64,000 nucleotides of DNA, taken from the NCBI RefSeq assembly GCF_055900595.2, contig NZ_CM148325.1. The stretch is one strand, 5' to 3'. Shown here one piece after another: positions 6,472-60,029 of the stretch. The notes below the pieces were generated by a model. It saw nothing but the letters and a program-made list of their open reading frames with translations. It was not told where the DNA came from and ran no database searches. How positions within the stretch are numbered: position 1 is the stretch's first letter; each line of letters opens with the position of its first letter. Position numbers and translations under genes: made by a program.

Positions 6472-7461
6472 ATGATGTATCATCATGATTTTAATGAAAA
6501 AATAGGTTTCTGGTATGTGATAGCCCTCGCAGGACAGTCTAATGGTATGGCCTACGGTGAAGGTATTCCCCTGCCAGATACACTCGACAAACCCGAGTCC
6601 CGTGTAAAACAACTGGCTCGTCGAAAAACAATCACACCAGGAGGAAAAGAGTGTAAATTCAATGAGATTATTCCGGCAGATCACTGCCTGCATGATGTTC
6701 AGGATATGAGTGGATATCACCATCCGGCTGCTGATTTGCATAAAGGGGAATATGGTTGTGTCGGACAGGGATTGCATATAGCTAAAAAGTTACTGCCATA
6801 CATACCTGAGCAAGCAGGGATATTACTGGTTCCTTGTTGCAGAGGAGGTGCCGCCTTTACTGTTGGAGCTGAAGGTATGTATGTACCTGATACAGGGGCA
6901 ACAGCTGATGCAATGCGGTGGGGCACCGGAACAGCACTCTATGAGGACTTAGTAGCCCGGGTTAAGGTAGCTCTGGAATATAACAGAAAGAATAAACTGC
7001 TATCTGTCTGCTGGATGCAGGGGGAGTTTGATCTTATGTCACCAGATTATGAAAAGCATCCTGACTTGTTTTATCAGATGGTAACTTCTTTCAGGTCTGA
7101 GTTATCTGAATACTCATCTCAGTGTGTTGGTAATTCGTCAGAAAGAGTTCCATGGTTGTGTGGTGATACAACCTGGTACTGGAAGGAATCTTATCAAAAA
7201 GAATATGATTTTATATATGGACATTACAGACAACGGACTGATGATGAAATACATTTTCTCAGCTTTCAGGATAGTAACCGACATGAATTAACTAATGAGC
7301 CAGAAGAAGATGCCGATGATTTATCTGTCGGGTATCTGGGGTCATCATGGAGGACAGAATTAAGCTGGACAACGTCACAGAGAAGTACACATTTTAATTC
7401 AATGGCCAGAAGGGGAGTTATTGCTGAATGTTATGCGCAAAAAATAAGAAATTATTTGTAG
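6472..7461 (+). CDS. nanS: 9-O-acetyl-N-acetylneuraminate esterase NanS (SGNH/DUF303 family)
   Basis: ALAGQSNGMAYGEG catalytic Ser block near N-terminus; size about 329 aa as for YjhS/NanS. Confidence 0.8.
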   Translation: MMYHHDFNEKIGFWYVIALAGQSNGMAYGEGIPLPDTLDKPESRVKQLARRKTITPGGKECKFNEIIPADHCLHDVQDMSGYHHPAADLHKGEYGCVGQGLHIAKKLLPYIPEQAGILLVPCCRGGAAFTVGAEGMYVPDTGATADAMRWGTGTALYEDLVARVKVALEYNRKNKLLSVCWMQGEFDLMSPDYEKHPDLFYQMVTSFRSELSEYSSQCVGNSSERVPWLCGDTTWYWKESYQKEYDFIYGHYRQRTDDEIHFLSFQDSNRHELTNEPEEDADDLSVGYLGSSWRTELSWTTSQRSTHFNSMARRGVIAECYAQKIRNYL

Positions 7462-7612
7462 ACAAGTTCAGGATATATCTACAGCTCTGACATGATTCTC
7501 TGAGAGACATGACGGAGTGGTTAGACTGGCCCCCTGAATCTCCAGACAACCAATATCACTTAAATAAGTGATAGTCTTAATACTAGTTTTTAGACTAGTC
7601 ATTGGAGAACAG

Positions 7613-7978
7613 ATGATTGATGTCTTAGGGCCGGAGAAACGCAGACGGCGTACTACACAGGAAAAGATCGCTATCGTTCAGCAGAGCTTTGAACCGGGAA
7701 TGACGGTCTCCCTTGTTGCCCGGCAACATGGTGTGGCAGCCAGCCAGTTATTTCTCTGGCGTAAGCAATACCAGGAGGGAAGTCTTACTGCTGTGGCTGC
7801 CGGAGAACAGGTCGTTCCTGCCTCTGAACTTGCTGCCGCCATGAAGCAGATTAAAGAACTCCAGCGTCTGCTCGGCAAAAAAACGATGGAAAATGAACTC
7901 CTTAAAGAAGCCGTTGAATATGGGCGAGCAAAAAAGTGGATAGCGCACGCGCCCTTATTGCCCGGGGATGGGGAGTAA
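7613..7978 (+). CDS. insC: IS2 transposase OrfA
   Basis: [29 protein letters not shown].. matches IS2 InsC as recalled. Confidence 0.9.
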
Positions 7979-8841
7979 GCTTCGTCAGCCGTTGTCTCCG
8001 GGTGTCGCGTGCGCAGTTGCACGTCATTCTCAGACGAGCCGATGACTGGAAGGACGGCCGCCGCAGCCGTCACACGGATGATACGGATGTGCTTCGCCGT
8101 ATACACCATGTTATCGGAGAGCTACCCACATATGGTTATCGTCGGGTATGGGCGCTGCTTCGCAGACAAACAGAACTTGATGGTATGCCTGCGATCAATG
8201 CCAAACGTGTTTACCGGACCATGCGCCAGAATGCGCTGTTGCTTGAGCGAAAACCCGCTGTACCGCCATCGAAACGGGCACATACCGGCAGAGTGGCTGT
8301 GAAAGAAAGTAATCAGCGATGGTGCTCTGACGGGTTTGAGTTCCGCTGTGATAACGGAGAAAAACTGCGGGTCACGTTCGCGCTGGACTGCTGTGACCGT
8401 GAGGCACTGCACTGGGCGGTCACAACGGGTGGCTTCGACAGTGAAACAGTACAGGACGTCATGCTGGGAGCAGTGGAACGCCGCTTTGGCAGCGAGCTTC
8501 CGGCGTCTCCAGTGGAGTGGCTGACGGATAATGGTTCATGCTACCGGGCGAATGAAACACGTCAGTTCGCCAGGATGTTGGGACTTGAACCGAAGAACAC
8601 GGCAGTGCGGAGTCCGGAGAGTAACGGAATAGCAGAGAGCTTCGTGAAAACGATAAAGCGTGACTACATAAGTATCATGCCCAAACCAGACGGGTTAACG
8701 GCAGCAAAGAACCTTGCAGAGGCGTTCGAGCATTATAACGAATGGCATCCGCATAGTGCGCTGGGTTATCGCTCGCCACGGGAATATCTGCGGCAGTGGG
8801 CCAGTGATGGGTTAAGTGATAACAGGTGTCTGGAAATATAG
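7936..8841 (+). CDS. insD: IS2 transposase OrfB
   Basis: 301 aa, DDE integrase fold; matches IS2 InsD as recalled. Confidence 0.9.
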
Positions 8842-29773: not shown

Positions 29774-31051
29774 CTAGGTGCCGCTGCGCCACTGAATCAG
29801 GGCGGGCGGCATACTGAGATCGAATAAATCACGTCCCATTACGCGATTAAGAATACGTGCAGATCTCCATGCCATCAGGCTGAGCTGGGGTTCGGCGATG
29901 CCATGGGTTTGCATACTGGCGTTGACCACGAAGATGTTGTTCTCTTTCGGGCCACTCCATTCCAGAGTGAAGTCATCACGCACTTTAAAGGTGTTCTTAT
30001 CGTGCATGGTGATCAGGGGCATCAGTGAGGGAAGTATTTGTGGCAACGCAGAACGGTAACCTGTGGCGAAAATCACCACATCACTTTCCAGGCTCTCCCT
30101 GCCCTGATCCAGATGATGCTCCATCAGCAACTTCCAGCCAGGACCACTACTTTCCAGAGTTGTTACCGAGCGGCTGGGTAGCAGACGGATATTTCTTGGT
30201 TTTCTCAGAACTTCAAAACGGTGGTACAACTCACGATAAATGGTCAGTAAAGAATCGGCAGTGATGCCATCCGATGTCATTTTCTGCTCATCCAGTAACT
30301 GATGGCGAATATCTTCCTCCAGTCCGGAGAAGCCTGAAATATATTCAGGTGTAAAATACTCATCAGCAAAAGCAGCCTCATCCAGTGCGTTAAAATTATT
30401 ACGCCGGGAGACCCAGTTTATTTCCGCCGCTTCTCCCCATTCCCCGCGTAATGCATTAAGGAACAGGTCTGCACCACTCTGTCCTCCACCAACCACGGTT
30501 ATCCGTTTTCCACTAAGGTCCGGCCGACGAAGATTCATTTCACTGGCATGGAAACAGGATTGTGTCATATGCTTCACACAGGGTGGTAAATAAGGTTGTT
30601 TTCCTGTACCAAGGCAGATATTGCGGGCAAAATATTCTCCCTGGCTGGTTTGCACCAGAAACAATCGACGTTTTTTATCGAAATCAATGTTTTCAACGGT
30701 ATGACTGAAATACAGGTTATTCATATCTTCAGCAGCCCAGCGGAGGTAGTCAGAAAACTCTTCACGGGATACTGTACGTAGTCTGCTTGTAAGGAAGCGA
30801 TAGAACTTTTTGTGCTTCACCAGATAGTTAACAAAACTGTAGGGATTTGTAGGTGCAACAGCACTGACCAGATCTTTCAGAAAGACGGTCTGCATATGAC
30901 AATCCGGTACCAGCATACCCGGATGCCAGGAAAAATGAGGATGTTCATCAAAGAAGAGACAGTCCAGTTCTTCGATCTGATGTGACAACGCAGCAATGCT
31001 GAGATTAAATGGCCCTGTCCCTACACCAATAAAATCGACACTTTTTTTCAT
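29774..31051 (-). CDS. iucD: L-lysine N6-monooxygenase IucD
   Basis: FAD/NADPH motifs (GVGTGPFNLS, VVGGGQSGAD); overlaps iucC stop by 4 bp. Confidence 0.9.
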   Translation of the reverse strand: MKKSVDFIGVGTGPFNLSIAALSHQIEELDCLFFDEHPHFSWHPGMLVPDCHMQTVFLKDLVSAVAPTNPYSFVNYLVKHKKFYRFLTSRLRTVSREEFSDYLRWAAEDMNNLYFSHTVENIDFDKKRRLFLVQTSQGEYFARNICLGTGKQPYLPPCVKHMTQSCFHASEMNLRRPDLSGKRITVVGGGQSGADLFLNALRGEWGEAAEINWVSRRNNFNALDEAAFADEYFTPEYISGFSGLEEDIRHQLLDEQKMTSDGITADSLLTIYRELYHRFEVLRKPRNIRLLPSRSVTTLESSGPGWKLLMEHHLDQGRESLESDVVIFATGYRSALPQILPSLMPLITMHDKNTFKVRDDFTLEWSGPKENNIFVVNASMQTHGIAEPQLSLMAWRSARILNRVMGRDLFDLSMPPALIQWRSGT

Positions 31052-36791: not shown

Positions 36792-36903
36792 AGATATGAT
36801 CATCACCTTACTGGAGTAAATCAGAGGATATGAGAGAGGACCTGCGTCTGATGAAAACATGTCAGGCAGTGTTCTGGCTTGCTGCCCCCGCCTGGATTTG
36901 CCC

Positions 36904-37809
36904 CTATATTTCCAGACATCTGTTATCACTTAACCCATTACAGGCCCGCTGCCGCAGATATTCCCGTGGCGAGCGATAACCCAACGCACTATGCGGATGC
37001 CATTCGTTATAATGCTCGAACGCCTCTGCAAGGTTCTTTGCTGCCGTTAACCCGTCTGGTTTGGGTATGATACTTATGTAGTCACGCTTTATCGTTTTCA
37101 CGAAGCTCTCTGCTATGCCGTTACTCTCCGGACTCCGCACCGCCGTGTTTTTCGGTTCAAGCCCCAACATCCGGGCAAACTGCCGTGTTTCATTAGCCCG
37201 GTAGCATGAACCATTATCCGTCAGCCACTCTACTGGAGACGCCGGAAGCTCGTTGCCGAAGCGGCGTTCCACCGCTCCCAGCATGACGTCCTGTACTGTT
37301 TCACTGTTGAAGCCGCCCGTAGTGACCGCCCAGTGCAGTGCCTCACGGTCACAGCAGTCCAGCGCGAACGTGACCCGCAGTTTTTCTCCGTTATCACAGC
37401 GGAACTCGAACCCGTCAGAGCACCATCGCTGATTACTTTCTTTCACAGCCACTCTGCCGGTATGTGCCCGTTTCGATGGCGGTACAGCGGTTTTTCGCTC
37501 AAGCAACAGCGCATTCTGGCGCATGATCCGGTAAATACGTTTGGCATTGATCGCAGGCATACCATCAAGTTCTGTTTGTCTGCGAAGCAGCGCCCATACC
37601 CGACGATAACCATATGTGGGTAGCTCTCCGATAACATGGTGTATACGGCGAAGCACATCCGTATCATCCGTGTGACGGCTGCGGCGGCCGTCCTTCCAGT
37701 CATCGGCTCGTCTGAGAATGACGTGCAACTGCGCACGCGACACCCGGAGACAACGGCTGACGAAGCTTACTCCCCATCCCCGGGCAATAAGGGCGCGTGC
37801 GCTATCCAC
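36904..37809 (-). CDS. insD: IS2 transposase OrfB
   Basis: 301 aa, near-identical to copy 1 InsD. Confidence 0.9.
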
Positions 37810-38132
37810 TTTTTTGCTCGCCCATATTCAACGGCTTCTTTAAGGAGTTCATTTTCCATCGTTTTTTTGCCGAGCAGACGCTGGAGTTCTTTAATCTGCT
37901 TCATGGCGGCAGCAAGTTCAGAGGCAGGAACGACCTGTTCTCCGGCAGCCACAGCAGTAAGACTTCCCTCCTGGTATTGCTTACGCCAGAGAAATAACTG
38001 GCTGGCTGCCACACCATGTTGCCGGGCAACAAGGGAGACCGTCATTCCCGGTTCAAAGCTCTGCTGAACGATAGCGATCTTTTCCTGTGTAGTACGCCGT
38101 CTGCGTTTCTCCGGCCCTAAGACATCAATCAT
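37767..38132 (-). CDS. insC: IS2 transposase OrfA
   Basis: Identical to copy 1 InsC in the track translation. Confidence 0.9.
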
Positions 38133-38840
38133 CTGTTCTCCAATGACTAGTCTAAAAACTAGTATTAAGACTATCACTTATTTAAGTGATATTGGTTGTC
38201 TGGAGATTCAGGGGGCCAGTCTAACGGTTTACGTTACGCCCTTAGCTACCTGGCTAAACAGGATCAGAAAGAACACGGTATTATTCTGATGCGTAGCAGA
38301 CTTCCCGAAAAAAGTAACCGCGGCCGACCACGACACAACTGAATTACAGCTGTATTAGAATTAAGTTTCCGTAAGTTGTTGGGAGGTGCTTGAGTTAATA
38401 GGCAGCAGAGGGGGCGCTGTAATCAGTGTAGGGGACCCGAATTTCTGCTGTGGTGCTTCAGTGGTTCGGATACAGGTAACGAATATGGTTCATAAATCTG
38501 ACAGTGATGAATTAGCAGCACTGAGGGAAGACATCACTTGAAGCTTATGGGATTGAATGGCGACGTAAACCGCAGAGTCCTGTGCAGTGCGTTTCCGTAT
38601 TATCCACGGATGAGAAAGTTGCGTTATTTCGTCGGTTGTTTCGTGGGCGTAGTGATGTATGGGGCCTTCGATGGGAAAGTAAAACTAGCGGAAAATAAAA
38701 GTACTCGCCTGCCTACGGACCTTTTTACTCAGGGTATTTTTGTTTTCCATAACGTTGCGTATTAACATGAAGGAGAACGAGGGGGATTAGGTAATCTCTT
38801 TCCATGAAAATACGCAAACGTTCATCACCGAAGTGAAAAA

Positions 38841-39269
38841 TCAGTTTTTGATATTTAAATAATTTTTCAAATCATATTTCAGCAGGACACTACCAGCACC
38901 TAACAGCAGCACATCTTTGATGACAAAACTGTCAACTTTTCCCAGTTGTGGTAACAGACTTAGTGTGACTAAACCTGTAACAATAACGATAATATCTCCC
39001 AGTATGCCAGCAGCAGGCCTGAAGAAGCCGATACTCAGTGCTAGAAAAGTGATAGTTTCTACTATGCCGAGGAAATAGCTCCCCCCATGAACACCAAACA
39101 TAATGTACAGGATATTCAGCCACGTGGGAGAAATCAGGGGCTTGAGGGCCATCACTTCAAAATCAAACCATTTATAGGTCCCGAAGAGCATAAATATTAT
39201 AATAACAGACAGGCGAAGAATAACTATGTCATAATCTGATTTAATGTAAACATTAATAAATTTTTTCAT
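38841..39269 (-). CDS. small inner-membrane protein, DUF417-like (YkgB/RclC-like)
   Basis: About 142 aa, four predicted TM helices; downstream of TetR gene on same strand. Confidence 0.45.
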   Translation of the reverse strand: MKKFINVYIKSDYDIVILRLSVIIIFMLFGTYKWFDFEVMALKPLISPTWLNILYIMFGVHGGSYFLGIVETITFLALSIGFFRPAAGILGDIIVIVTGLVTLSLLPQLGKVDSFVIKDVLLLGAGSVLLKYDLKNYLNIKN

Positions 39270-39308
39270 TTCATTCTCCGGGTGGAAAATTATATGCACT
39301 AAAAAGGA

Positions 39309-39869
39309 TTAAGTACGGGTATCAAGCATTTTAATTAAAGCGTTAACGGTTCCTGAATAGATATCATGTGGTGGAAGTCGATTTAACATCAGTGCCCCCT
39401 TTAGTGTAGAACAGACTATAACGGCGAGCTCATCCGGAAGAAGAACTGTTTTGAACTCTCCACTATTCTGCCCGGAGGTGATAATATCTTTAATCATCTG
39501 TATCTCCTGATGTGCCAGTTGACTTACAGCCTCCTGTAATTCAGGAGAAAACTGATGGCTGTCGGATAGCATGGCATAAATACCGCACATTTCCCCTCTT
39601 TCAGCACAACCAGCAAATGCATCAAGATATGTCCTGAGACGTTGTACACCTGAAGAAACATTATGGAGAGTTATATTAAGTCTATCAAATACTTCTGTTT
39701 TGTATTGGCAGTAGGCTATACCAAGATCAGTTTTCCTCGGGAAATGGTGATGAATACTGGCTTTTCTGATACCAATTTCTTTTTCCAGATCTGCGTAACT
39801 GAACCCCAAAAATCCGCGTTGCTGGATCAGAGTATCCGTTATGCGAAGTATATTCTCATAAGTAGACAC
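39309..39869 (-). CDS. TetR/AcrR-family transcriptional regulator
   Basis: N-terminal HTH ..GFSYADLEKEIGIRKASIHHHFPRKTDL.. typical of TetR family. Confidence 0.8.
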   Translation of the reverse strand: MSTYENILRITDTLIQQRGFLGFSYADLEKEIGIRKASIHHHFPRKTDLGIAYCQYKTEVFDRLNITLHNVSSGVQRLRTYLDAFAGCAERGEMCGIYAMLSDSHQFSPELQEAVSQLAHQEIQMIKDIITSGQNSGEFKTVLLPDELAVIVCSTLKGALMLNRLPPHDIYSGTVNALIKMLDTRT

Positions 39870-39910
39870 GGCTTTACCTGTTATGTATTAAAGGGACTAT
39901 TATACATATT

Positions 39911-40177
39911 TTAGCGATAGATAATGGCAGTTCCATCAAGTTTATTTTTTCCTCCCAATGAAGTGATTCGGAAATGAGAACCTCCTGCCTGCTCCGCTTT
40001 GTCTTTAAGCGCAGTTGCCACCTCTTCTGGTGTATATAGATTACCAACAGAAATATAGTCTGACGGCATCAAACCAACAACGTCCTGACGATTAATTTCA
40101 TCTGCAGCAGTTGCGTAGCCTGTCAGAATGAGACCAAGGGCGACAATGGTAGTGCAGATAACATAATTCATGAGCAA
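39911..40177 (-). CDS. YhcN/BhsA-like periplasmic stress protein (DUF1471)
   Basis: Signal peptide then DUF1471-like C-terminus ..KAEQAGGSHFRITSLGGKNKLDGTAIIYR. Confidence 0.55.
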   Translation of the reverse strand: MLMNYVICTTIVALGLILTGYATAADEINRQDVVGLMPSDYISVGNLYTPEEVATALKDKAEQAGGSHFRITSLGGKNKLDGTAIIYR

Positions 40178-51717: not shown

Positions 51718-51736
51718 TGGTGCCCGGACTCGGAAT
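51718..51736 (-). other. 19-bp repeat of tRNA-Phe 3' end (att-type direct repeat), not a complete tRNA
   Basis: TGGTGCCCGGACTCGGAAT is the reverse complement of the tRNA-Phe 3' end; sequence beyond diverges from tRNA; about 200 bp upstream of int. Confidence 0.75.
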
Positions 51737-51983
51737 GAAACTGGTTATATAACCAATTGTTTTGTATCGACTGTTTTGTCTTTGTTCTTTTTGGGGCCAC
51801 CAATGAGGCCCCCATGTGCAATTCGAATTCTTTTGACGCTATAATCCCTCTTTTTTGTGCTTTGTTGTAATCATTTTGTCTGGTTCGATATGCTGAATCG
51901 CGGAATCGAAGTAACAACAAAATACAGAGATTTATAAAATACCTGGCTACCTGTGTTAGGGAGCGTTAACGCACAGATTTTGT

Positions 51984-52310
51984 TTATGGCTGCCAGAAAT
52001 GATCTGATGGTTTGTCGTCTGGCTCTGCAAGTACCCTGTTGATATCCCGGGAACCATGAACGATACGTTCGATACGAACTTCAGTATCCAGTACCCTGAA
52101 CAGCAGAAGGTAACGACCATACGAACAACCTCTGATCCCTGCCCCTAACTCGGGTCTTTCTCTGTAGAGTACTGGCGATTCGGCTATCAACAGACATTGT
52201 TGGTAAAGCTCTTCGGTAAAACTGATTGCACGGACAGGATTATCCTGAGCGATCCAGTCACCTATAGCTTCAAGATCGTGTTCTGCTAATGGTGAAACAG
52301 TCAGTTTCAT
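51984..52310 (-). CDS. type II toxin, ParE/RelE family
   Basis: 108 aa; ..YGRYLLLFRVLDTEVRIERIVHGSRD.. ParE signature; 4-bp overlap with upstream antitoxin gene. Confidence 0.75.
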   Translation of the reverse strand: MKLTVSPLAEHDLEAIGDWIAQDNPVRAISFTEELYQQCLLIAESPVLYRERPELGAGIRGCSYGRYLLLFRVLDTEVRIERIVHGSRDINRVLAEPDDKPSDHFWQP

Positions 52311-52570
52311 ATTGGCTGTTCACCTTCTGCCATCTTTTTGTATTTGTGCGTCAGTCGCCCGAATACCTCTTCAGCACTTTTACTTTCACCGCTGTTGATG
52401 CCTGCGGTAACGGCGCTCTGGAGTGATTCAAGCTTTATCTGCTGTTCCCGTTCTTCCAGAGCACGAAGTCCGGCACGAATGACTTCACTTGTATTGTTAT
52501 ACCGACCACTTTCTATTTGTTCGCGGATAAACGTTTCAAAGTAAGGACTGAGGGATACACTGGTAGGCAT
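52307..52570 (-). CDS. type II antitoxin, ParD-like (RHH)
   Basis: 87 aa; ..YFETFIREQIESGRYNNTSEVIRAGLRALEERE.. typical ParD/RHH antitoxin. Confidence 0.75.
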   Translation of the reverse strand: MPTSVSLSPYFETFIREQIESGRYNNTSEVIRAGLRALEEREQQIKLESLQSAVTAGINSGESKSAEEVFGRLTHKYKKMAEGEQPI

Positions 52571-52641
52571 GGTGATTTTCTCGCCGATTGATTACTATCA
52601 ATTAATAATAGTTAATATTCGCGAATTGTAAAATACCTCTT

Positions 52642-53508
52642 TTATGCCTTGCGGCTTTTGTTCACTGTGCTTGCCAGGGCTTCCGGGTAGTGTCTGACAA
52701 TAATATCATTAAGCCTGTCAACCAGTTCTGGTTTCCTGAACGTGATGTGCGCGGAGCCCTTCTTAAAGTATCTGATGCTGAACATCTCATCTTCATAGTC
52801 CTCTTTACCCTGAACAGACCGGATGTGCTCATTCAGATGAATGGTGATGTTTTCCCGGTTGTCGGGGATCGGTTTGCCGCTGAACAGATACAGCATTCTT
52901 TCCAGGTCGGCAAGTCGATCTGCCTGTTGCCCGGTGATAAGATGAAACCCCCACCGGTCCCACCTCACCAGGTTGTTGACGATAATTTTACTGCCAAATT
53001 TACAGGGTGAATTGTTTTCGTAATTCCAGCTCAGTCCCCTGAAAACATTGATCACCCCACGCTCAAACACTTCATCTTTGTTCTGGTGCAGTTGTTCAAA
53101 TGTGCTCAGAATGTTCGCTTCACTGATTTCCGGAAAATTATCGTATTCCAGTGACCGGTACCATGTATCACGGGCCTGCGCATCCATTAATGACAGCATC
53201 CCGGAACGTTGCATCAGGTCACGCCAGATTTCGCGATCGAGATTGCGGGTGATGGCTTTCATTGCTGTTTCCGGTTTATCCATGAGCCAGCATCCGCAGC
53301 GAAAATCCTGTTTCATCGCCCAGTCCCGTGCGCTTTTACCACCAATGCTTTTTGTCAGTACTGAGATTTCAGTCAGTTGCCGGATAAGCGTTTCGGTTTG
53401 TTGCAGTGCTGCATTCCGTACCGTCACAACGTGTCGGATACTGGTGGAGCAGATAACGTCCGTATTCCCGGTGACCACTTCCGGATGGGAGATTGTGATG
53501 TTTGACAT
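52642..53508 (-). CDS. conserved CP4-type prophage protein (YafZ-like, DUF4942-like)
   Basis: 288 aa; family assignment from recall only. Confidence 0.4.
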   Translation of the reverse strand: MSNITISHPEVVTGNTDVICSTSIRHVVTVRNAALQQTETLIRQLTEISVLTKSIGGKSARDWAMKQDFRCGCWLMDKPETAMKAITRNLDREIWRDLMQRSGMLSLMDAQARDTWYRSLEYDNFPEISEANILSTFEQLHQNKDEVFERGVINVFRGLSWNYENNSPCKFGSKIIVNNLVRWDRWGFHLITGQQADRLADLERMLYLFSGKPIPDNRENITIHLNEHIRSVQGKEDYEDEMFSIRYFKKGSAHITFRKPELVDRLNDIIVRHYPEALASTVNKSRKA

Positions 53509-53592
53509 TATCGGTTTCCCTTTTGGTTTATAAACGAAAACGCCAGCCGTATTCAGGCTGGCGTCAGTGGAATGAAGTCTGGTGAGTAAGGC

Positions 53593-53790
53593 TCACCGGT
53601 TCTGTTGCAGAAGCTGCAGTTGGCGCAGGGTATGGATATCCTCCCTCGCCTGTTCAATGCAGGGCAGCAGTGCTGCCGAATCCGTTTTATCCTCATCGTT
53701 GTCAAAGATAATTCCCGATTCGCAGTCGATATTGTCCTGCAGCCACGCAATCAGAATATCCAGTGCTGTTTCCGTGGTTAATGATTTCAT
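53593..53790 (-). CDS. small hypothetical protein (65 aa)
   Basis: ATG at 53790 preceded by AGGAA; acidic small protein downstream of cbtA-region genes. Confidence 0.35.
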   Translation of the reverse strand: MKSLTTETALDILIAWLQDNIDCESGIIFDNDEDKTDSAALLPCIEQAREDIHTLRQLQLLQQNR

Positions 53791-53801
53791 GTTGTTCCTG
53801 G

Positions 53802-54290
53802 TTACCAGTTGAAAGTGGGTAAACCCGGCAGGCATTCAGCGCTGGCATCCAGATGAATGAGACTGACGCCATAACGTCGGGTAAGTGTGACAACCAGACA
53901 ACGGAACGTTTTTGACAGGCCCAGGCGCTTAAGCCGCAGAACCGGGTATGACCACGCATCGGTACGTAACAGATAGCCGCTACCTGTGAAATGAATCCAT
54001 TCTGATTCACCAACGTCACTGGTCTGATGCGACAGCGAGTACAGCCAGGCGTTATCCTTTTCCGTGATATGTGCGGTACTGCAGCGTATGCCGGCAAGGG
54101 TTGCAAACGGTGGTAGTGTGCAGGTTGACTGTTGGTCGGATTCCTCCACCACGCGGAGTGAATAACCGTTTTCAGCGACCTTGTTAATCAGTTCAGTGAG
54201 ATTAACACCATCGACGTCAACGACAATTTGCCCCATGTTCAGTGCCTGCACATTAATTCTGTCGGCTTCCAGCATCAGGGAAAGTTTCAT
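53802..54290 (-). CDS. hypothetical protein downstream of CbtA-like toxin (YeeW-region)
   Basis: Start overlaps cbtA-like stop (ATGA coupling); no recognised motif. Confidence 0.4.
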
Positions 54291-54661
54291 CGTTTCTCCG
54301 GATGCTTACCCAGGGTAATGTTATTTACCGTTCTGTAATTGTCGCGGGTCATCAGGCCGGTCGCCCGGCGAGCCCGGAGGATATCAATACTGTTTATTAA
54401 CTGAGAGCGGGGACAAGTGCTGAATCCCGGCTGGTCGGTACGCACCAGCGCGTATTTTTCCACGAGAAAATTCACCGCATCACACAGTGAAATGCCAGCT
54501 TCAATATGCTGCTCAATCACACGTTCATCGGCGAACGGTGTGTCATTCAGTGTAAGGCCGTAATGCTGGCCCAGTAGTCGGGAGAGCAGAGTCTGCCAGA
54601 TGGTGACGGGAGACGGGCAGCTCGATGCCTCCCGTACGTGTGTATCGGGTAATGTTTTCAT
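54287..54661 (-). CDS. CbtA/YeeV/YkfI-family toxin (cytoskeleton-binding, type IV TA)
   Basis: 124 aa; ..[55 protein letters not shown].. matches YeeV family as recalled. Confidence 0.85.
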
Positions 54662-54750
54662 ACTGAAGGTTTTCCTGATATGCAGAGATGAAAAATGGAA
54701 AAGTGGCGTGGTGAAAGCACCAGGCCGGAGCAGAAGGTTATTCCGGTGGT

Positions 54751-55119
54751 TTACTTTTTCGTTTCGGGCGTCGGATAAACAGCCAGATAAACGTAACCAC
54801 AGGAGCCGAGGGTGTCGGCTTCGCAGGTCAGCCCTTTCGCATACAGCGTGACGGTATGCTGATGTCGGGGATTCAGTTCACCGCTGGTGAGCATGAGTTC
54901 CAGTTGTTTCATCAGCAGCGGAAAGGCCTGGTCCAGATGGTATGCATCTGCGTCGCTGAAGCGGCCTCTGATACCGGCGCGGTCGGCAAGGTAATGCAGG
55001 CGGTTACCCTCCTGCACCAGACGGGCGCCAAAACAGGGCCTCACTGTGCAGGGAAGCCCCCACCAGGGGCGGTCGTGATTGTCGTCGGGATGAGTTATCC
55101 CGGAGAGTGTGTCTGACAC
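54751..55119 (-). CDS. CbeA/YeeU-family antitoxin
   Basis: 122 aa; [42 protein letters not shown].. matches YeeU family as recalled. Confidence 0.85.
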
Positions 55120-55168
55120 GATAAAATCCTCTCTGAAAAGTGGTTAAGAATGGTTTAACGATGACAGG

Positions 55169-55801
55169 TCAGCCGGTGCGCTGACCGGTTTCGGTGAAGA
55201 TGTATGCATTGATGAGAATGGCCTCATCCACAGCGGCGTCTGAGGTCATCTGGTCGTACTCGTTTTCCAGTTGACGGTACAGCCAGAAGGCCAGGTCGCG
55301 CAGGGCTTCGCTGACAGCGGCTTCCGCATCGGCTGTCATAGCCTGACCAGTCGGACTGTTCCGGGTAACAGTGATAACGGATGGCAGTAACGTCCCCGGT
55401 GGTGGATTTCAGCCTGCAGTTGCCAGAAGTTACGTTTCTGCACCGCCTGCAGGGCATCCGCGATACGATGAAGCTCACGGTTCTGCGGGGCATACTCCCG
55501 GACTCTCCTGGTTGTTGCTGACTGCCAGTGCCAGCGTCCTTCAAAACAGGCTCCGTCCCTGGCTGCAGAATCCGCTGAACCAGATGCACGGCTCTTCCAT
55601 AAACCTGCCGTTGCTGAGACGGATAACACGCTGGCAGAGGTCAATTCCGAAAATGCCACAGACCTCCCTGACGTCCTCATACACGTTTTCATACCAGTTG
55701 CTGTCAGCATGATGCTGACGGTACCCGTCGCGGGCTTTTTCCCGTGCCGGGCAGGAAAGTTCATCCAGCGTATACACTGTGATGGTGATAATTCTGCTCA
55801 T
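55169..55801 (-). pseudogene. disrupted ORF between YeeT-like and CbeA-like genes (three overlapping frame fragments)
   Basis: Natural-looking segments lie in frame A (55541-55801), frame B (55336-55764) and frame A again (about 55169-55339); suggests two compensating frameshifts or overlapping small genes. Confidence 0.3.
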
Positions 55802-55815
55802 CAGAATGCCCTGAC

Positions 55816-56037
55816 TCAGTTCAGGGTGACGCTCATCAGCCGGACATACGGGCCAAAACTGTCCTTACGACGTTCTGCAAACACAGCCAGCACACCGGGA
55901 ATATCCTGCACTTCACGACCGGTATACGTTTCAGTGCTGCCGTGCCAGCGGTATTTGCCGGTACAGAACGGAAAAAGACGGGATGCAGGATGCTGTTGGT
56001 GAATACGCATGGCTTCACCACGGGTGATGATTTTCAT
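55816..56037 (-). CDS. YeeT-like protein (DUF987)
   Basis: 73 aa, MKIITRGEAMRIHQQHP..; conserved position between RadC-like and antitoxin genes. Confidence 0.7.
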   Translation of the reverse strand: MKIITRGEAMRIHQQHPASRLFPFCTGKYRWHGSTETYTGREVQDIPGVLAVFAERRKDSFGPYVRLMSVTLN

Positions 56038-56105
56038 AATGGGATACCTCTGAAGACAGAAGATAAAAGTGAAAACAGGTGTGATGTGGTTGTGACGGTG
56101 ACGGG

Positions 56106-56597
56106 TTAAAGCAGACCGTGTTCGGCAAAGGAGAATACCTGGCTGCCACCGACTATCAGATGGTCCGGCACCCGGATATCCACCAGGGCCAGCGCCTGAA
56201 CCAGACGTTCCGTAATAAGCCGGTCTGCCTTACTGGGAGTGACTTCACCGGACGGGTGGTTGTGTGCCAGTATCACGGCGGCGGCATTGTGGTACAGGGC
56301 GCGTTTAATCACTTCCCGGGGATGGACTTCCGTGCGGTTGATGGTGCCGGTGAAGAGGGTTTCACCGGCAATCAGCTGATTCTGGTTGTTCAGATACAGC
56401 ACCCGGAACTCTTCACGCTCCAGTCCCGCCATGTTCAGAATCAGCCATTCCCGTGCCGCATGCGTGGAGGTGAAGGCCACGCCGGGTTCATGAAGATGAC
56501 GGTCCAGGGTTTTCAGGGCCCGCTGAATGAGGCTGCGCTCACCGGGTGTCATCTCTCCGGGCAGAAAGGAAAGTTGTTGCATTGTGCTTCTCTCCAT
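56106..56597 (-). CDS. RadC-like JAB-domain protein (YeeS/YfjY family)
   Basis: JAMM-like motif ..AAVILAHNHPSGEVTPSKADRLIT.. Confidence 0.85.
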   Translation of the reverse strand: MERSTMQQLSFLPGEMTPGERSLIQRALKTLDRHLHEPGVAFTSTHAAREWLILNMAGLEREEFRVLYLNNQNQLIAGETLFTGTINRTEVHPREVIKRALYHNAAAVILAHNHPSGEVTPSKADRLITERLVQALALVDIRVPDHLIVGGSQVFSFAEHGLL

Positions 56598-57083
56598 TCA
56601 GTCGATGATGCGCATAATGGCGCTGCATTCCGGATGCTGCAGGGCATAATCCCGCAGCCGGTAATAATGGACCGTCATGGCATAACACTCCGTACGACAG
56701 GCATGATGACTGTACGTCATCAGACAGGCAGCAATGCCGGCGGCTTCCGGGCTCATTTCAGCGCGGTTACCGTTCATGGCATTGAACAGTACCCATGTTT
56801 CGTCATCATCGTCATCCGGTTCGGGTGCCATAAATGCCCCGCCGTTGTTCAGGGTGTACAGATTCCAGATACCACCGCAGTAGTCTTCGCACAGACGGTC
56901 CATCCAGCCGAAGACACGGGGCTCCAGGGTCACCCACTGTGGAATGAGGCCAAAGTGCTGCGGCCAGAAGCTGATGCGCTGTTCATCAGGGACTATGGTG
57001 GCAACCAGCTGAGACTGGTTATTCCCTGATGCAGTAGTTACGGAAACAGAAGGTGTGGTGAAATTATGCGAAGAGGTTGTCAT
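56598..57083 (-). CDS. antirestriction protein (YfjX/YafX, ArdB/KlcA-like)
   Basis: ..RISFWPQHFGLIPQWVTLEPRVFGWMDRLCEDYCGGIWNLYTLNNGGAFMAP.. typical antirestriction family. Confidence 0.8.
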   Translation of the reverse strand: MTTSSHNFTTPSVSVTTASGNNQSQLVATIVPDEQRISFWPQHFGLIPQWVTLEPRVFGWMDRLCEDYCGGIWNLYTLNNGGAFMAPEPDDDDDETWVLFNAMNGNRAEMSPEAAGIAACLMTYSHHACRTECYAMTVHYYRLRDYALQHPECSAIMRIID

Positions 57084-57173
57084 GAGATTATTCCTTATAA
57101 AAAGTAAATGAATGGAAGACGTCCCGGGGACAGGGACAGACGTGAGCCGGACTGTACTTTCAGGGAAACGGCA

Positions 57174-57992
57174 TCAGCGCAGGCTCTCCAGCAACGTTTC
57201 CGCCATCACCCATAACGCGCGATTGAGCTTAATGTCGGTGTCAATGCTGTGAATGGCCCGGGTATGGATACGTTTTCCTTTTGCACTGCGACCGGAAATC
57301 CCGCCTTTCAGCATATTCTCCTGGATGGTCTGATAAGCACTCCACAGGTCCTTACCGTAATCCTCCCGGCGTCGTGGCGTCAGAATGTCGGCGGTGGTGA
57401 CGAGGTGATGTTCGTCACCATAACGGTAAGTCAGTGCCGCCTGTGCCAGCGCCTGGCGTGCCGGTGGCGGCAGGACCAGCGACTGCATGGCATCACGCTT
57501 TTCCTCAATCCGGTCAAAAACGCCCACCACTTCGTAAGCCCCTTCAATAACTTTCTCCACCACGTCTCCCCGGTGTGGAACACGCACTTCCCCCAGAGAC
57601 TGACCACAGACGCAGCCGTTCTGGCAGACGAACCTGAAGTAACCCGGCAGCATCTGGTAGCTGGAGGTACCGTCATGGGAGTTCAGCAGGATGATTTCAG
57701 GGACATGTTGTCCGTTTATCTCTCCGTCACGGCGCAGACGCAGCATGTGTTTGGTATACCCCCGGCGGCCCGGGTCACGTACGCGGGTCTGGCAGGCAAA
57801 GAAGGGCTGAAAGCCTTCCCGCTGCAGGCTTTCCAGCACGGTGATGGTGGGGATCCAGGTATAGTTCTCGCTTCTGGATGTGTGCTTATCTTCCCCGAAT
57901 ACGCTGGGGACGACCTGCATCAGTTCTTCGCGAGTTAAGGGGCGGTCACGGCGTATCTGGTTCGCATAACCAAAACGACTGGCTAATCGCAT
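57174..57992 (-). CDS. DUF932-family protein (YfjQ-like)
   Basis: 272 aa; conserved CP4-57 module position. Confidence 0.6.
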   Translation of the reverse strand: MRLASRFGYANQIRRDRPLTREELMQVVPSVFGEDKHTSRSENYTWIPTITVLESLQREGFQPFFACQTRVRDPGRRGYTKHMLRLRRDGEINGQHVPEIILLNSHDGTSSYQMLPGYFRFVCQNGCVCGQSLGEVRVPHRGDVVEKVIEGAYEVVGVFDRIEEKRDAMQSLVLPPPARQALAQAALTYRYGDEHHLVTTADILTPRRREDYGKDLWSAYQTIQENMLKGGISGRSAKGKRIHTRAIHSIDTDIKLNRALWVMAETLLESLR

Positions 57993-58082
57993 GATTTGCT
58001 CCTTATGAATGAGTTAGCGATATAAATGAAAAAGCCGCGCCTCCCGGAGAAGACGCGGCCTGATGGATGAAATGAATGAGGT

Positions 58083-58316
58083 TTATTGTCTGGGAAGCCC
58101 TTCACTGGCGAGCCACGCATTAAGTTGTTTGCCGGCATCGTATTCAAAATTCCAGCACCGCCAGCGCAACTGACCTTCAGCATTGTGGATAACCAGCCGG
58201 AAATGCGTTCCCTGGTCATTTTCGATAAACACATTGCGATAAGCTGTTGTGATGGCAACCGCCTGCTCTCGAGAGAAAGGGCCTTCGGGCAATAAAACAG
58301 GGTGACAGTCCGACAT
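58083..58316 (-). CDS. DUF905-like small protein (YkfF/YpjJ-like)
   Basis: 77 aa, ..[30 protein letters not shown].. Confidence 0.55.
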
Positions 58317-58321
58317 ACCGG

Positions 58322-58999
58322 CTATTTTCCGATAAATTCAACGCTGGCACCGGTGGCATTACCGTCAGCACCAACCGTGACGGTCACTTTGTCGTACGCA
58401 CGGTCTTCAGGATTGAACACTTCAAACTCAACCTTATTGCCTTTTACTTCGTAAGAGCCAAAATCAGCGGTTTCTGTTGTTTCCTCGTCATATTCCCGGG
58501 CGTATGCCTGCCGGGCAGCCTGCAGGACGGAATCTTTATTAATAGTGGTCGTCTGTTTCGGGGAAAAACCGGCAAGTGATGTGACAAATTTCGGACAGAC
58601 CTTCAGCATATCACCGCGGGTGAATTCCATTCGTACACCAAATGCCTGTAAAACGGACACATCACGCTCTGCTATGGAGTGAACGGCTTTTTTGACCATT
58701 TCCGGCGCCTGTCCGATTTCCACCTCAACAGCCCTGAATCCCGTCTGCTGATTACACATTTGTGATGTGGGGATCAGGTTACCGTTAATACTGATACGGC
58801 TGCCCAGGAGCGTCTGTACGCCATTCGGGCATCCCTGCATCAGGCCGGTAATACCAATCGTGCCATTTTTCAGCATTACCAGCGCCTGACCATCTTCCGT
58901 CATGGTCTGACACCAGCCGTTTTTGACAGCCCAGTTGCCGGCGGAGGCGGAGAATGATGCCACAGTGAACAGCAGGGGAAAAAGAGCTCTGGTATTCAT
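58322..58999 (-). CDS. hypothetical secreted protein
   Basis: Signal peptide [20 protein letters not shown] at internal Met (58999); no recognised domain. Confidence 0.5.
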
Positions 59000-59146
59000 G
59001 ACTGACCTCTGAAATGAACGTATGGTGTTATTGATAATGATGGAAGGTATGCAGTGACTGTTCAGGGAATGACGTAGCCGTATATTTAGTTTTCTGTTCA
59101 ACATATTGTCTCCATACCTGTCGGGACGGCTTTGGCAGGCCGGCGA

Positions 59147-59827
59147 TCACAGGTTAAAGGTGTTGATAAGTTTATGGATGAAAGAGAAATGTGGCAGGGC
59201 GGAGATAAAACGCTCTTCAGCGACCAGACTGTGGATGTGGCCTCTCCGTTCAAACCGTTCTGATGTCAGGCTGACTGATTTGATATCTGCCAGAGGAAAG
59301 ACCTGCAGTTTTCCCTTCTGTAACGCGATCAGATACCAGCTACCGCTGTAATAAATGAGCCGGCAGGGCTCCAGTGACGGATACCATCGCTCAGCCATCA
59401 GAGAGATGTGGATACACTGTCTTATTGCCAGGATGAGTTGCGAGAAACACTCGGGGAACGTTGCAGTGATATCCGGCGCCGGTAGCCAGATAAGGCAGGG
59501 AGAGGGCTCCTGGTTGTCGGTAAGACAGGTTATCAGTCGTCCGTTCCGGAGCGGAAGTATCCGTGCGATCCCCGTATTCTGTATAAAAGAAAGCATTTCA
59601 GGGATCGCACCTGGGCTGCTCTGTCGTCTGAGGCTGTACCTGCCATTTCTGTACTCTAAATCCAGGTGAACCAGACGCTGATGAAAATCGCGCTGTAAAG
59701 TACGTTCTGTAACGCCAAATTCATCTGACAGTGTTTTTAGTGACAGAGATTCTCCGGCCATCAGTCGGCTGATAATGAGTGATAAGCGAACCGCCAGGCG
59801 ATCATGCCGGGAACGATTATCAGACAT
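59147..59827 (-). CDS. YfjR-like transcriptional regulator (HTH plus WYL-type domain)
   Basis: N-terminal HTH (..LSLIISRLMAGESLSLKTLSDEFGVTERTLQRDF..), about 226 aa. Confidence 0.7.
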   Translation of the reverse strand: MSDNRSRHDRLAVRLSLIISRLMAGESLSLKTLSDEFGVTERTLQRDFHQRLVHLDLEYRNGRYSLRRQSSPGAIPEMLSFIQNTGIARILPLRNGRLITCLTDNQEPSPCLIWLPAPDITATFPECFSQLILAIRQCIHISLMAERWYPSLEPCRLIYYSGSWYLIALQKGKLQVFPLADIKSVSLTSERFERRGHIHSLVAEERFISALPHFSFIHKLINTFNL

Positions 59828-60029
59828 AGATGTGCACTCCGTAAGAAAACATCTTTTATTTCATAATGTTATTATGCATCATGATGTTGAAAGGATGTGT
59901 CGCATCCGAATAATCAGGAATAAAATGCAGCAGAAAAAATATTCCTTTAATTATCTGATTTTTAAGCAGGGTTTCATAAAAAGAAGAATGCTTGTTAATC
60001 CAGCGACACATCCTGTCGGCGTGAGTGTG

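Follow-up and report, generated by a model that had tools for sequence, protein, structure and literature searches.

The window analysed here is a stretch of 64,000 nucleotides from contig NZ_CM148325.1 (RefSeq assembly GCF_055900595.2), and this report concerns a small operon at 38841-40171 on its minus strand. Three intact co-directional genes lie there, in the order DUF1471 gene, TetR gene and DUF417 gene, separated by gaps of 41 nt and 39 nt; the mechanically called open reading frames (ORFs) on this strand are 39911-40177, 39309-39869 and 38841-39299. The preliminary description, made from the sequence alone, had placed three co-directional genes among insertion sequence (IS) debris, and the ORFs were found at the coordinates it gave, with IS2 on one side and an ISL3 fragment and an IS3-family pseudogene on the other. 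Its three domain guesses were borne out by profile searches, the check it had proposed, which returned the expected families and not unrelated ones. The genes are listed below with their boundaries as revised in this work.

39911-40171, minus strand: rcrA, 86 aa, DUF1471 / YdgH_BhsA-like protein (PF07338, E 5.3e-13); WP_001110186.1 in Nissle and CFT073
39309-39869, minus strand: rcrR, 186-aa TetR-family repressor and sensor of hypochlorous acid (HOCl), with TetR_N and TetR_C_13 domains
38841-39269, minus strand: rcrB, 142-aa DUF417 inner-membrane protein, effector of HOCl resistance (Pfam DUF417, E 7.7e-21; on the longer ORF 38841-39299, E 8.9e-21)

Identification of the operon as rcrARB

We identify the three genes, with a probability of about 95%, as rcrA-rcrR-rcrB, the rcrARB operon of the RcrR regulon, which is a horizontally acquired defence against reactive chlorine species. 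In the uropathogenic Escherichia coli strain CFT073, the loci c3599, c3600 and c3601 now carry the names rcrA, rcrR and rcrB (PMC9600549; Sultana 2022, mBio, and two follow-up papers). Compared with the CFT073 proteins, RcrA of the window carries no substitution, RcrR one (I170T) and RcrB one (Y147H, in 152-aa numbering), and every published residue of RcrR and RcrB that has been functionally mapped is present. At the DNA level, positions 38100-40600 are 100% identical to Nissle 1917, as they are to numerous further strains, among them ABU 83972; in RefSeq, the matching Nissle 1917 sequence is annotated with the same three genes. The operon segment is covered to at least 80% in 633 of 5426 complete E. 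coli genomes, and its GC content is 39-41% as against 50-60% in the flanks. We found no evidence contradicting the identification. Since the operon of the window is near-identical to the published rcrARB, it is already known and experimentally characterised, and its part in the survival of Nissle 1917 and many extraintestinal E. coli when neutrophils produce bleach has been published. The published mechanism comes from the CFT073 operon (proteins 99-100% identical), and the sole test of the window's own allele is the deletion of rcrB in Nissle.

Repression and oxidant sensing by RcrR

The domain scores of RcrR, 31.7 bits for PF00440 and 33.9 bits for PF16925, are both above cutoff and place the protein in the TetR family. 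Its cysteines stand at 54, 88, 95 and 153, matching the positions in PMC9600549, and C54, C88 and C95 are invariant among seven orthologues. Without stress, RcrR occupies the rcrA promoter region and silences all three genes, and deletion of rcrR raises rcrA 105-fold and rcrB 24-fold; HOCl, hypobromous acid (HOBr) and chloramines oxidise RcrR to intermolecular disulfide-linked oligomers, upon which DNA binding falls (PMC9600549). Cys54 and Cys95 are essential: with either one changed to serine (C54S or C95S), RcrR binds DNA poorly and does not complement a ΔrcrR strain (PMC9600549). HOCl, HOBr and chloramines induce the operon, and hydrogen peroxide (H2O2) and hypothiocyanous acid (HOSCN) do not (PMC10312555).

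The start of rcrA is probably ATG 40171, the mechanical TTG start probably being too long, and the N-terminus of RcrA resembles a signal peptide when judged by eye (MNYVICTTIVALGLILTGYATA / ADE). Deletion of rcrA is without an HOCl phenotype (PMC9600549). RcrA passes at the level of the Pfam domain only and misses the equivalog cutoffs; as a candidate BhsA or YhcN orthologue it was rejected, at 47.6 bits against a cutoff of 90 (NF047859) and 37.4 bits against 125 (NF033776), respectively.

RcrB: effector function, N-terminus and fold

High HOCl resistance requires rcrB in both CFT073 and Nissle, and in K-12 RcrB suffices by itself (PMC9600549; PMC10312555); the Nissle rcrB deletion is HOCl-sensitive (PMC10312555). 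The conjecture of a mobile oxidative-stress cassette responsive to hypochlorite matches this published work, in which HOCl induces the genes through RcrR and resistance is conferred through RcrB (PMC9600549, PMC10312555, bioRxiv 10.64898/2026.03.12.711259). A link to biofilms, which had been considered as well, fared less well: RcrB appears irrelevant to biofilm formation, and RclC is no substitute for RcrB (PMC10312555). A preprint locates RcrB in the inner membrane, and reports that it lowers extracellular HOCl, requires glutathione synthesis and depends on the periplasm-facing residues K43, W44, W60 and K128, which are essential (bioRxiv 10.64898/2026.03.12.711259).

The literature numbers RcrB as a protein of 152 aa starting at GTG 39299. 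Sequence comparison suggests that the true start is probably ATG 39269, giving 142 aa, with the GTG start too long and the published numbering carrying 10 untranslated residues. A GGAG motif stands 8 nt upstream of ATG 39269, all 14 aligned homologues begin MK(N/K) there, and most of the 120 database relatives listed are about 142 aa long. Such a correction shifts the published residue numbers by 10. RcrB of the window carries K43, W44, M50, W60, K121, F125 and K128 at the positions given in the preprint (152-aa numbering); K43, W44, W60 and K128 correspond to K33, W34, W50 and K118 in 142-aa numbering and are invariant across the 14 homologues. In a wide DUF417 alignment only K33 (published K43) is invariant, and R19, E38 and E71, which are R29, E48 and E81 in 152-aa numbering, are nearly so. 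The DUF417 family is small: a search of 1.84 billion proteins gave 324 representative clusters at E <= 0.001.

An AlphaFold2 model of RcrB built from a 48-sequence alignment had a mean predicted local distance difference test score (pLDDT) of 91 and a predicted template-modelling score (pTM) of 0.82, and its helices are consistent with four membrane-spanning segments. Foldseek aligned the model to the DoxX-like fold with template-modelling scores of 0.69/0.73. At the profile level, 29 of 48 DUF417 members matched Pfam DoxX (best E 2.7e-5), 20 of 48 matched MauE and 9 of 48 DoxX_2; RcrB alone matched Pfam DoxX at E 1.1. By modelled fold and by profile-level relationship, RcrB is thus assigned to the DoxX-like superfamily, which makes a redox-coupled four-helix membrane component more likely than a passive shield. 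Among PDB chains, the DUF417 profile had no sequence match. We found no literature pairing RclC with DoxX, and the link between RcrB and DoxX was not found in the rcr literature searched.

As an RclC orthologue, RcrB was rejected: it scored 23.6 bits against the NCBIfam cutoff of 275 (NF040476), and the two proteins cannot stand in for each other (PMC10312555). The earlier labels "RclC-type" and "BhsA/YhcN-like" therefore stand for the domains and fall for orthology, with equivalog scores far below cutoff for both proteins.

A predicted promoter and RcrR operator upstream of rcrA

The regions upstream of the first gene were aligned and scanned in seven rcrR-containing loci from six genera. All seven shared a common layout, consisting of a -35 element TTGnnn, one base, a 16-bp dyad and a -10 element TAnnnT. 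In the window the corresponding predicted features are as follows.

40205-40233, minus strand: predicted rcrA promoter, with -35 TTGCAA (40228-40233), a 17-nt spacer and -10 TAGCAT (40205-40210)
40211-40226, no strand assigned: predicted RcrR operator, CCTACC-AATC-AGAAGG on the minus strand, with two mismatches to CCTACC-N4-GGTAGG

The transcript of rcrA would be expected to start near 40198. The dyads of the seven loci differ in their perfection.

Proteus: CCTACC-TTCT-GGTAGG, perfect
Providencia: CCTACC-TTTT-GGTAGG, perfect, extending to a 26-bp palindrome
Klebsiella plasmid: 24-bp perfect palindrome centred on CCTATC-TATT-GATAGG
Escherichia marmotae: one mismatch
E. coli (window): two mismatches
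Serratia: three mismatches
Raoultella: three mismatches

The dyad was not seen upstream of four DUF417 genes without an intact rcrR, and 40211-40226 is the only match at two or fewer mismatches in the 64-kb window. An inverted-repeat search of the promoter region did not return the operator, owing to the imperfect dyad of E. coli. We propose that RcrR would bind this 16-bp dyad, which fills the spacer between -35 and -10, and that the bound repressor would occlude RNA polymerase. No definition of an operator was found in the rcr papers, and PMC9600549 nowhere mentions a palindrome. One mechanical ORF overlying the promoter (40168-40482, minus strand) had a chance-level match to SseI, 18 bits against a cutoff of 621, and was treated as spurious.

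Flanking elements and the stretch beyond rcrB

The operon is bordered on both sides by mobile-element remains, and the debris beyond rcrB includes two pseudogene fragments.

36893-38223, minus strand: IS2, between shiF and the debris preceding rcrB; terminal repeats TGGATTTGCCCC... and ...GGGGGCCAGTCTA
38229-38342, plus strand: 3' remnant (last 39 codons) of a gene of the YagK/YfjJ ("inovirus-type Gp2") family, annotated as a partial pseudogene in Nissle
38485-38714, plus strand: 5' fragment of a gene for a TOTE conflict system archaeo-eukaryotic primase domain protein, frameshifted and without its C-terminus, according to the Nissle RefSeq annotation
38751-38822, minus strand: long imperfect hairpin in the 3' region of rcrB, folding energy -38 kcal/mol, z -2.9, without a U-tract
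40720-41469, plus strand: ISL3-family transposase fragment with its N-terminus missing, bounding the promoter side of the operon (Nissle RefSeq annotation; ORF 40723-41469)
about 42209-43422: IS3-family pseudogene, beyond the ISL3 fragment

The stretch of about 600 bp at 38224-38840 had been described as lying upstream of the operon and as unexplained. It lies downstream (3') of it and holds the YagK/YfjJ and TOTE primase-like fragments. The former is 97% identical by tblastn to residues 149-187 of an intact 187-aa protein of strain SW4848; the latter runs from ATG 38485 to 38714, where homology to the E. coli island backbone stops. Positions 38224-38714 are 82-97% identical to DNA in the islands of 2080 of 5426 E. 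coli genomes, SW4848 being an intact example. On these alignments we interpret the stretch as island-backbone debris. The mechanical ORFs 38386-38541 and 38538-38765 gave no family match and are frames through the TOTE pseudogene. The last approximately 125 bp next to the rcrB stop codon occur solely alongside rcrARB. The hairpin at 38751-38822 may mark the end of the transcript or stabilise it; a search for a canonical intrinsic terminator after rcrB was negative, the only terminator-like site on this strand lying about 510 nt further on at 38334-38317, and no known RNA family (Rfam) was detected in 38000-40800 at E <= 1.

No clean 5-bp target duplication of IS2 was seen. The shiF-rcrB junction is uninterrupted, without IS2, in plasmid pE2022-9 and in chromosomes such as uk_P46212. 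The former (60.8 kb) is a conjugative E. coli plasmid on which iutA-iucDCBA-shiF, rcrBRA and a degenerate pap segment follow one another in the chromosomal island order; much of the island was therefore either picked up by a conjugative plasmid or came from one.

Other observations in the window

Over 29100-49601 the window is 99.985% identical to Nissle 1917, with two mismatches and one gap. The RefSeq annotation of Nissle 1917 marks iucD, the gene at 29718-31051 of the window, as frameshifted. Between 18603 and 21300, some 2.7 kb are absent from Nissle 1917 and SK1144; the co-directional ORFs there encode 225, 115 and 523 aa, a size pattern that by itself makes the segment a candidate IS66-family element. 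Beyond the island integrase and a partial tRNA-Phe 3' end, the window does not, unlike Nissle 1917, SK1144 and CFT073, run on into yqgA and speC. At 51720-64000 it has a second island backbone, with DUF4942, DUF5983, RadC, antirestriction, DUF932, WYL-HTH regulator and GTPase genes. The arrangement resembles a tandem of two islands at a pheV-type site.

Related loci and linkage to aerobactin

On the Klebsiella pneumoniae plasmid pSGH10 (extract L002, 7111-10321), rcrARB with 77% DNA identity lies directly downstream of iutA. Three further genes of the cluster follow there: a CMD gene whose AhpD-like product has a CxxC motif, a DM13 gene whose product carries a membrane anchor at its N-terminus, and a gene for a 306-aa YdgH-like protein with a signal peptide. 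The same set of six genes is found on the Serratia plasmid pET_W2 (extract L005, 6107-9322), and 612 plasmid records, of which 580 are from Klebsiella, hold the six-gene form with an identity of at least 99%; the ones examined were virulence-type plasmids. From the published description of the marker, the CMD gene is probably peg-589, a marker of hypervirulent K. pneumoniae. No functional study of the Klebsiella six-gene cluster was found in the literature, the one match joining rcrARB and Klebsiella mentioning RcrR homologues only in passing.

From these gene orders we infer that the operon of E. coli matches genes one to three of this six-gene cluster, which reads rcrA, rcrR, rcrB, CMD, DM13, YdgH-like. 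Downstream of E. coli rcrB, no CMD remnant was found by blastn or tblastn, and homology to the non-E. coli loci ends at 38849. In E. coli, shiF is joined to rcrB, with or without IS2, in 589 genomes (about 93% of the rcrARB carriers). The rcr cluster therefore has the aerobactin locus as its neighbour in both genera but meets it on opposite sides, at shiF in E. coli and at iutA in Klebsiella. Neither the aerobactin linkage nor the six-gene form was found in the rcr papers searched.

Other arrangements were also seen. On plasmid-like contigs (L011, L012 and L014, about 7459-8182), rcrARB-CMD is followed by the methionine sulfoxide reductase genes msrB and msrA, which fits an oxidant-repair island. 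In Raoultella, IS1 cuts the cluster right after rcrB. The Proteus chromosome (L007, 4354-12376) has an rcrR-rcrB pair without rcrA, flanked by an hlyC/RTX-toxin gene pair and, 3.5 kb off, by a divergent AraC/Cupin_6 regulator and pyridine-nucleotide disulfide oxidoreductase; this divergent pair has the domain content of RclR/RclA and may mark a chlorine-stress neighbourhood. In Providencia alcalifaciens, rcrR and rcrB are arranged divergently, with a GST gene alongside, and in Citrobacter the DUF417 gene is preceded by a different small regulator.

Interpretation and alternatives

Beyond the known operon, the analysis adds a precise predicted operator and promoter, the N-terminus of RcrB, its DoxX-like placement, an explanation of the debris, the aerobactin linkage and the longer Klebsiella/Serratia cluster; the RcrR operator, the six-gene correspondence, the adjacency to shiF and the DoxX-like placement were not found in the rcr literature searched. 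The position of a longer orthologous cluster right beside the aerobactin receptor gene suggests oxidant defence as a candidate function in hypervirulent K. pneumoniae. Taken to its full extent, this leads to a broader proposal that we regard as unlikely in its entirety: rcrARB would be the surviving first half of an envelope redox system with six genes (RcrA, RcrR, RcrB, the AhpD-like protein with its CxxC motif, DM13 with its membrane anchor and the YdgH-like protein in the periplasm), linked to aerobactin in two arrangements and complete on Klebsiella hypervirulence plasmids as a defence against neutrophil oxidants, with RcrB a DoxX-like, redox-coupled component and no self-contained scavenger.

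Several points limit the main reading and its finer details. In RcrR and in RcrB, a single residue each separates the window allele from that of CFT073, on which most of the work was done. For the biochemistry of RcrB the source is a preprint, and the DoxX relationship gives nothing direct on substrate or cofactor. The operator is predicted, and its E. coli copy has two mismatches in one half-site; chance alone gives about one such match per 64 kb, and support for the operator therefore rests on its register and position and on its recurrence in otherwise unalignable promoters. The published DNA-binding work used a 440-bp fragment only (PMC9600549). The view of the six-gene form as the older arrangement draws on only two six-gene loci and three partial four-gene ones.

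One alternative concerns how RcrB removes HOCl. Proteins of the DoxD and DoxX type belong to membrane redox complexes linked to quinone or thiol. The placement of RcrB in this class leaves room for a quinol- or thiol-coupled mechanism, which is a lead and not a result. RcrB might supply the periplasm with reductant that destroys HOCl, acting as a DoxX-like component linked to quinol or thiol or letting glutathione out, as opposed to quenching HOCl on its own Lys/Trp surface. We hold this to be possible, if on balance doubtful. Besides the fold and sequence relationship, it is favoured by the need for glutathione synthesis and the lowering of extracellular HOCl (bioRxiv 10.64898/2026.03.12.711259), by the CxxC AhpD-like, "electron transfer DM13", and MsrA/MsrB or GST genes adjoining rcrB in related loci, and by the near-invariant R19, E38 and E71 of the wider family, which lie outside the residues cited above from the preprint. 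Against it, the preprint argues for direct chemistry from the four essential periplasm-facing residues, and RcrB works alone in K-12 without the neighbouring genes.

A decaying, non-functional remnant stranded among insertion sequences is very improbable: only three of the six genes are present, with no CMD remnant and with IS elements and pseudogenes on both sides, but the three ORFs are intact, the segment is retained in the 633 genomes counted above, and deletion of rcrB in Nissle or CFT073 abolishes HOCl resistance while RcrB suffices in K-12 (PMC9600549; PMC10312555).

DUF1471 proteins are generally linked to stress and biofilm. We give hardly any credence to the reading of the cassette as a general RclC/BhsA-type module for envelope, copper or biofilm stress that is not specific for chlorine. 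This reading has that background and the weak similarity to the RclC, BhsA and YhcN models in its favour, but is contradicted by the scores against those models (23.6 vs 275, 47.6 vs 90 and 37.4 vs 125 bits), by the lack of induction with H2O2 or HOSCN, the lack of RcrB-RclC cross-complementation and the apparent irrelevance of RcrB to biofilm (PMC10312555), and is effectively refuted by the HOCl-specific induction and resistance already published.

Comparison with known systems

The closest known system is the rcrARB operon of CFT073 itself, with the same gene order and lengths, 99-100% protein identity and the published functional residues, and with the same setting in a pheV-type island with an ISL3 fragment and degenerate pap genes adjoining. 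The two differ in the DNA left of 38616. There the window, which is of the Nissle type, passes from rcrB through debris and IS2 to shiF-iuc, whereas the CFT073 side of the junction has other hypothetical genes, ISEc10 and iha.

Among regulators, RcrR resembles NemR of E. coli, a TetR-family repressor that reactive chlorine inactivates through cysteines so that protective genes are derepressed; NemR uses a thiol-sulfenamide switch and has other target genes, whereas RcrR uses other cysteines and intermolecular disulfides (PMC9600549). RcrB shares with RclC (YkgB, of the rclABC operon) its nature as a DUF417 inner-membrane protein from an HOCl-induced operon. In contrast, RclC has a 190-position NCBIfam model and an AraC-type activator, RclR, and RcrB is 142 aa long and under TetR control. 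With the DoxX/DoxD-like superfamily (DoxX, MauE, NACHO/TMEM35A), RcrB has in common a small four-helix membrane fold and a family-level sequence relationship; it differs in its own similarity to DoxX, which reaches only the E value of 1.1 given above, and in that no quinone or partner protein is known for RcrB. Finally, the Klebsiella cluster of the pSGH10 / pLVPK type encodes RcrA, RcrR and RcrB that are 65%, 74% and 80% identical to those of the window and keeps the functional residues and the promoter/operator layout, but it extends into the CMD, DM13 and 306-aa YdgH-like genes and lies downstream of iutA, not beside shiF.

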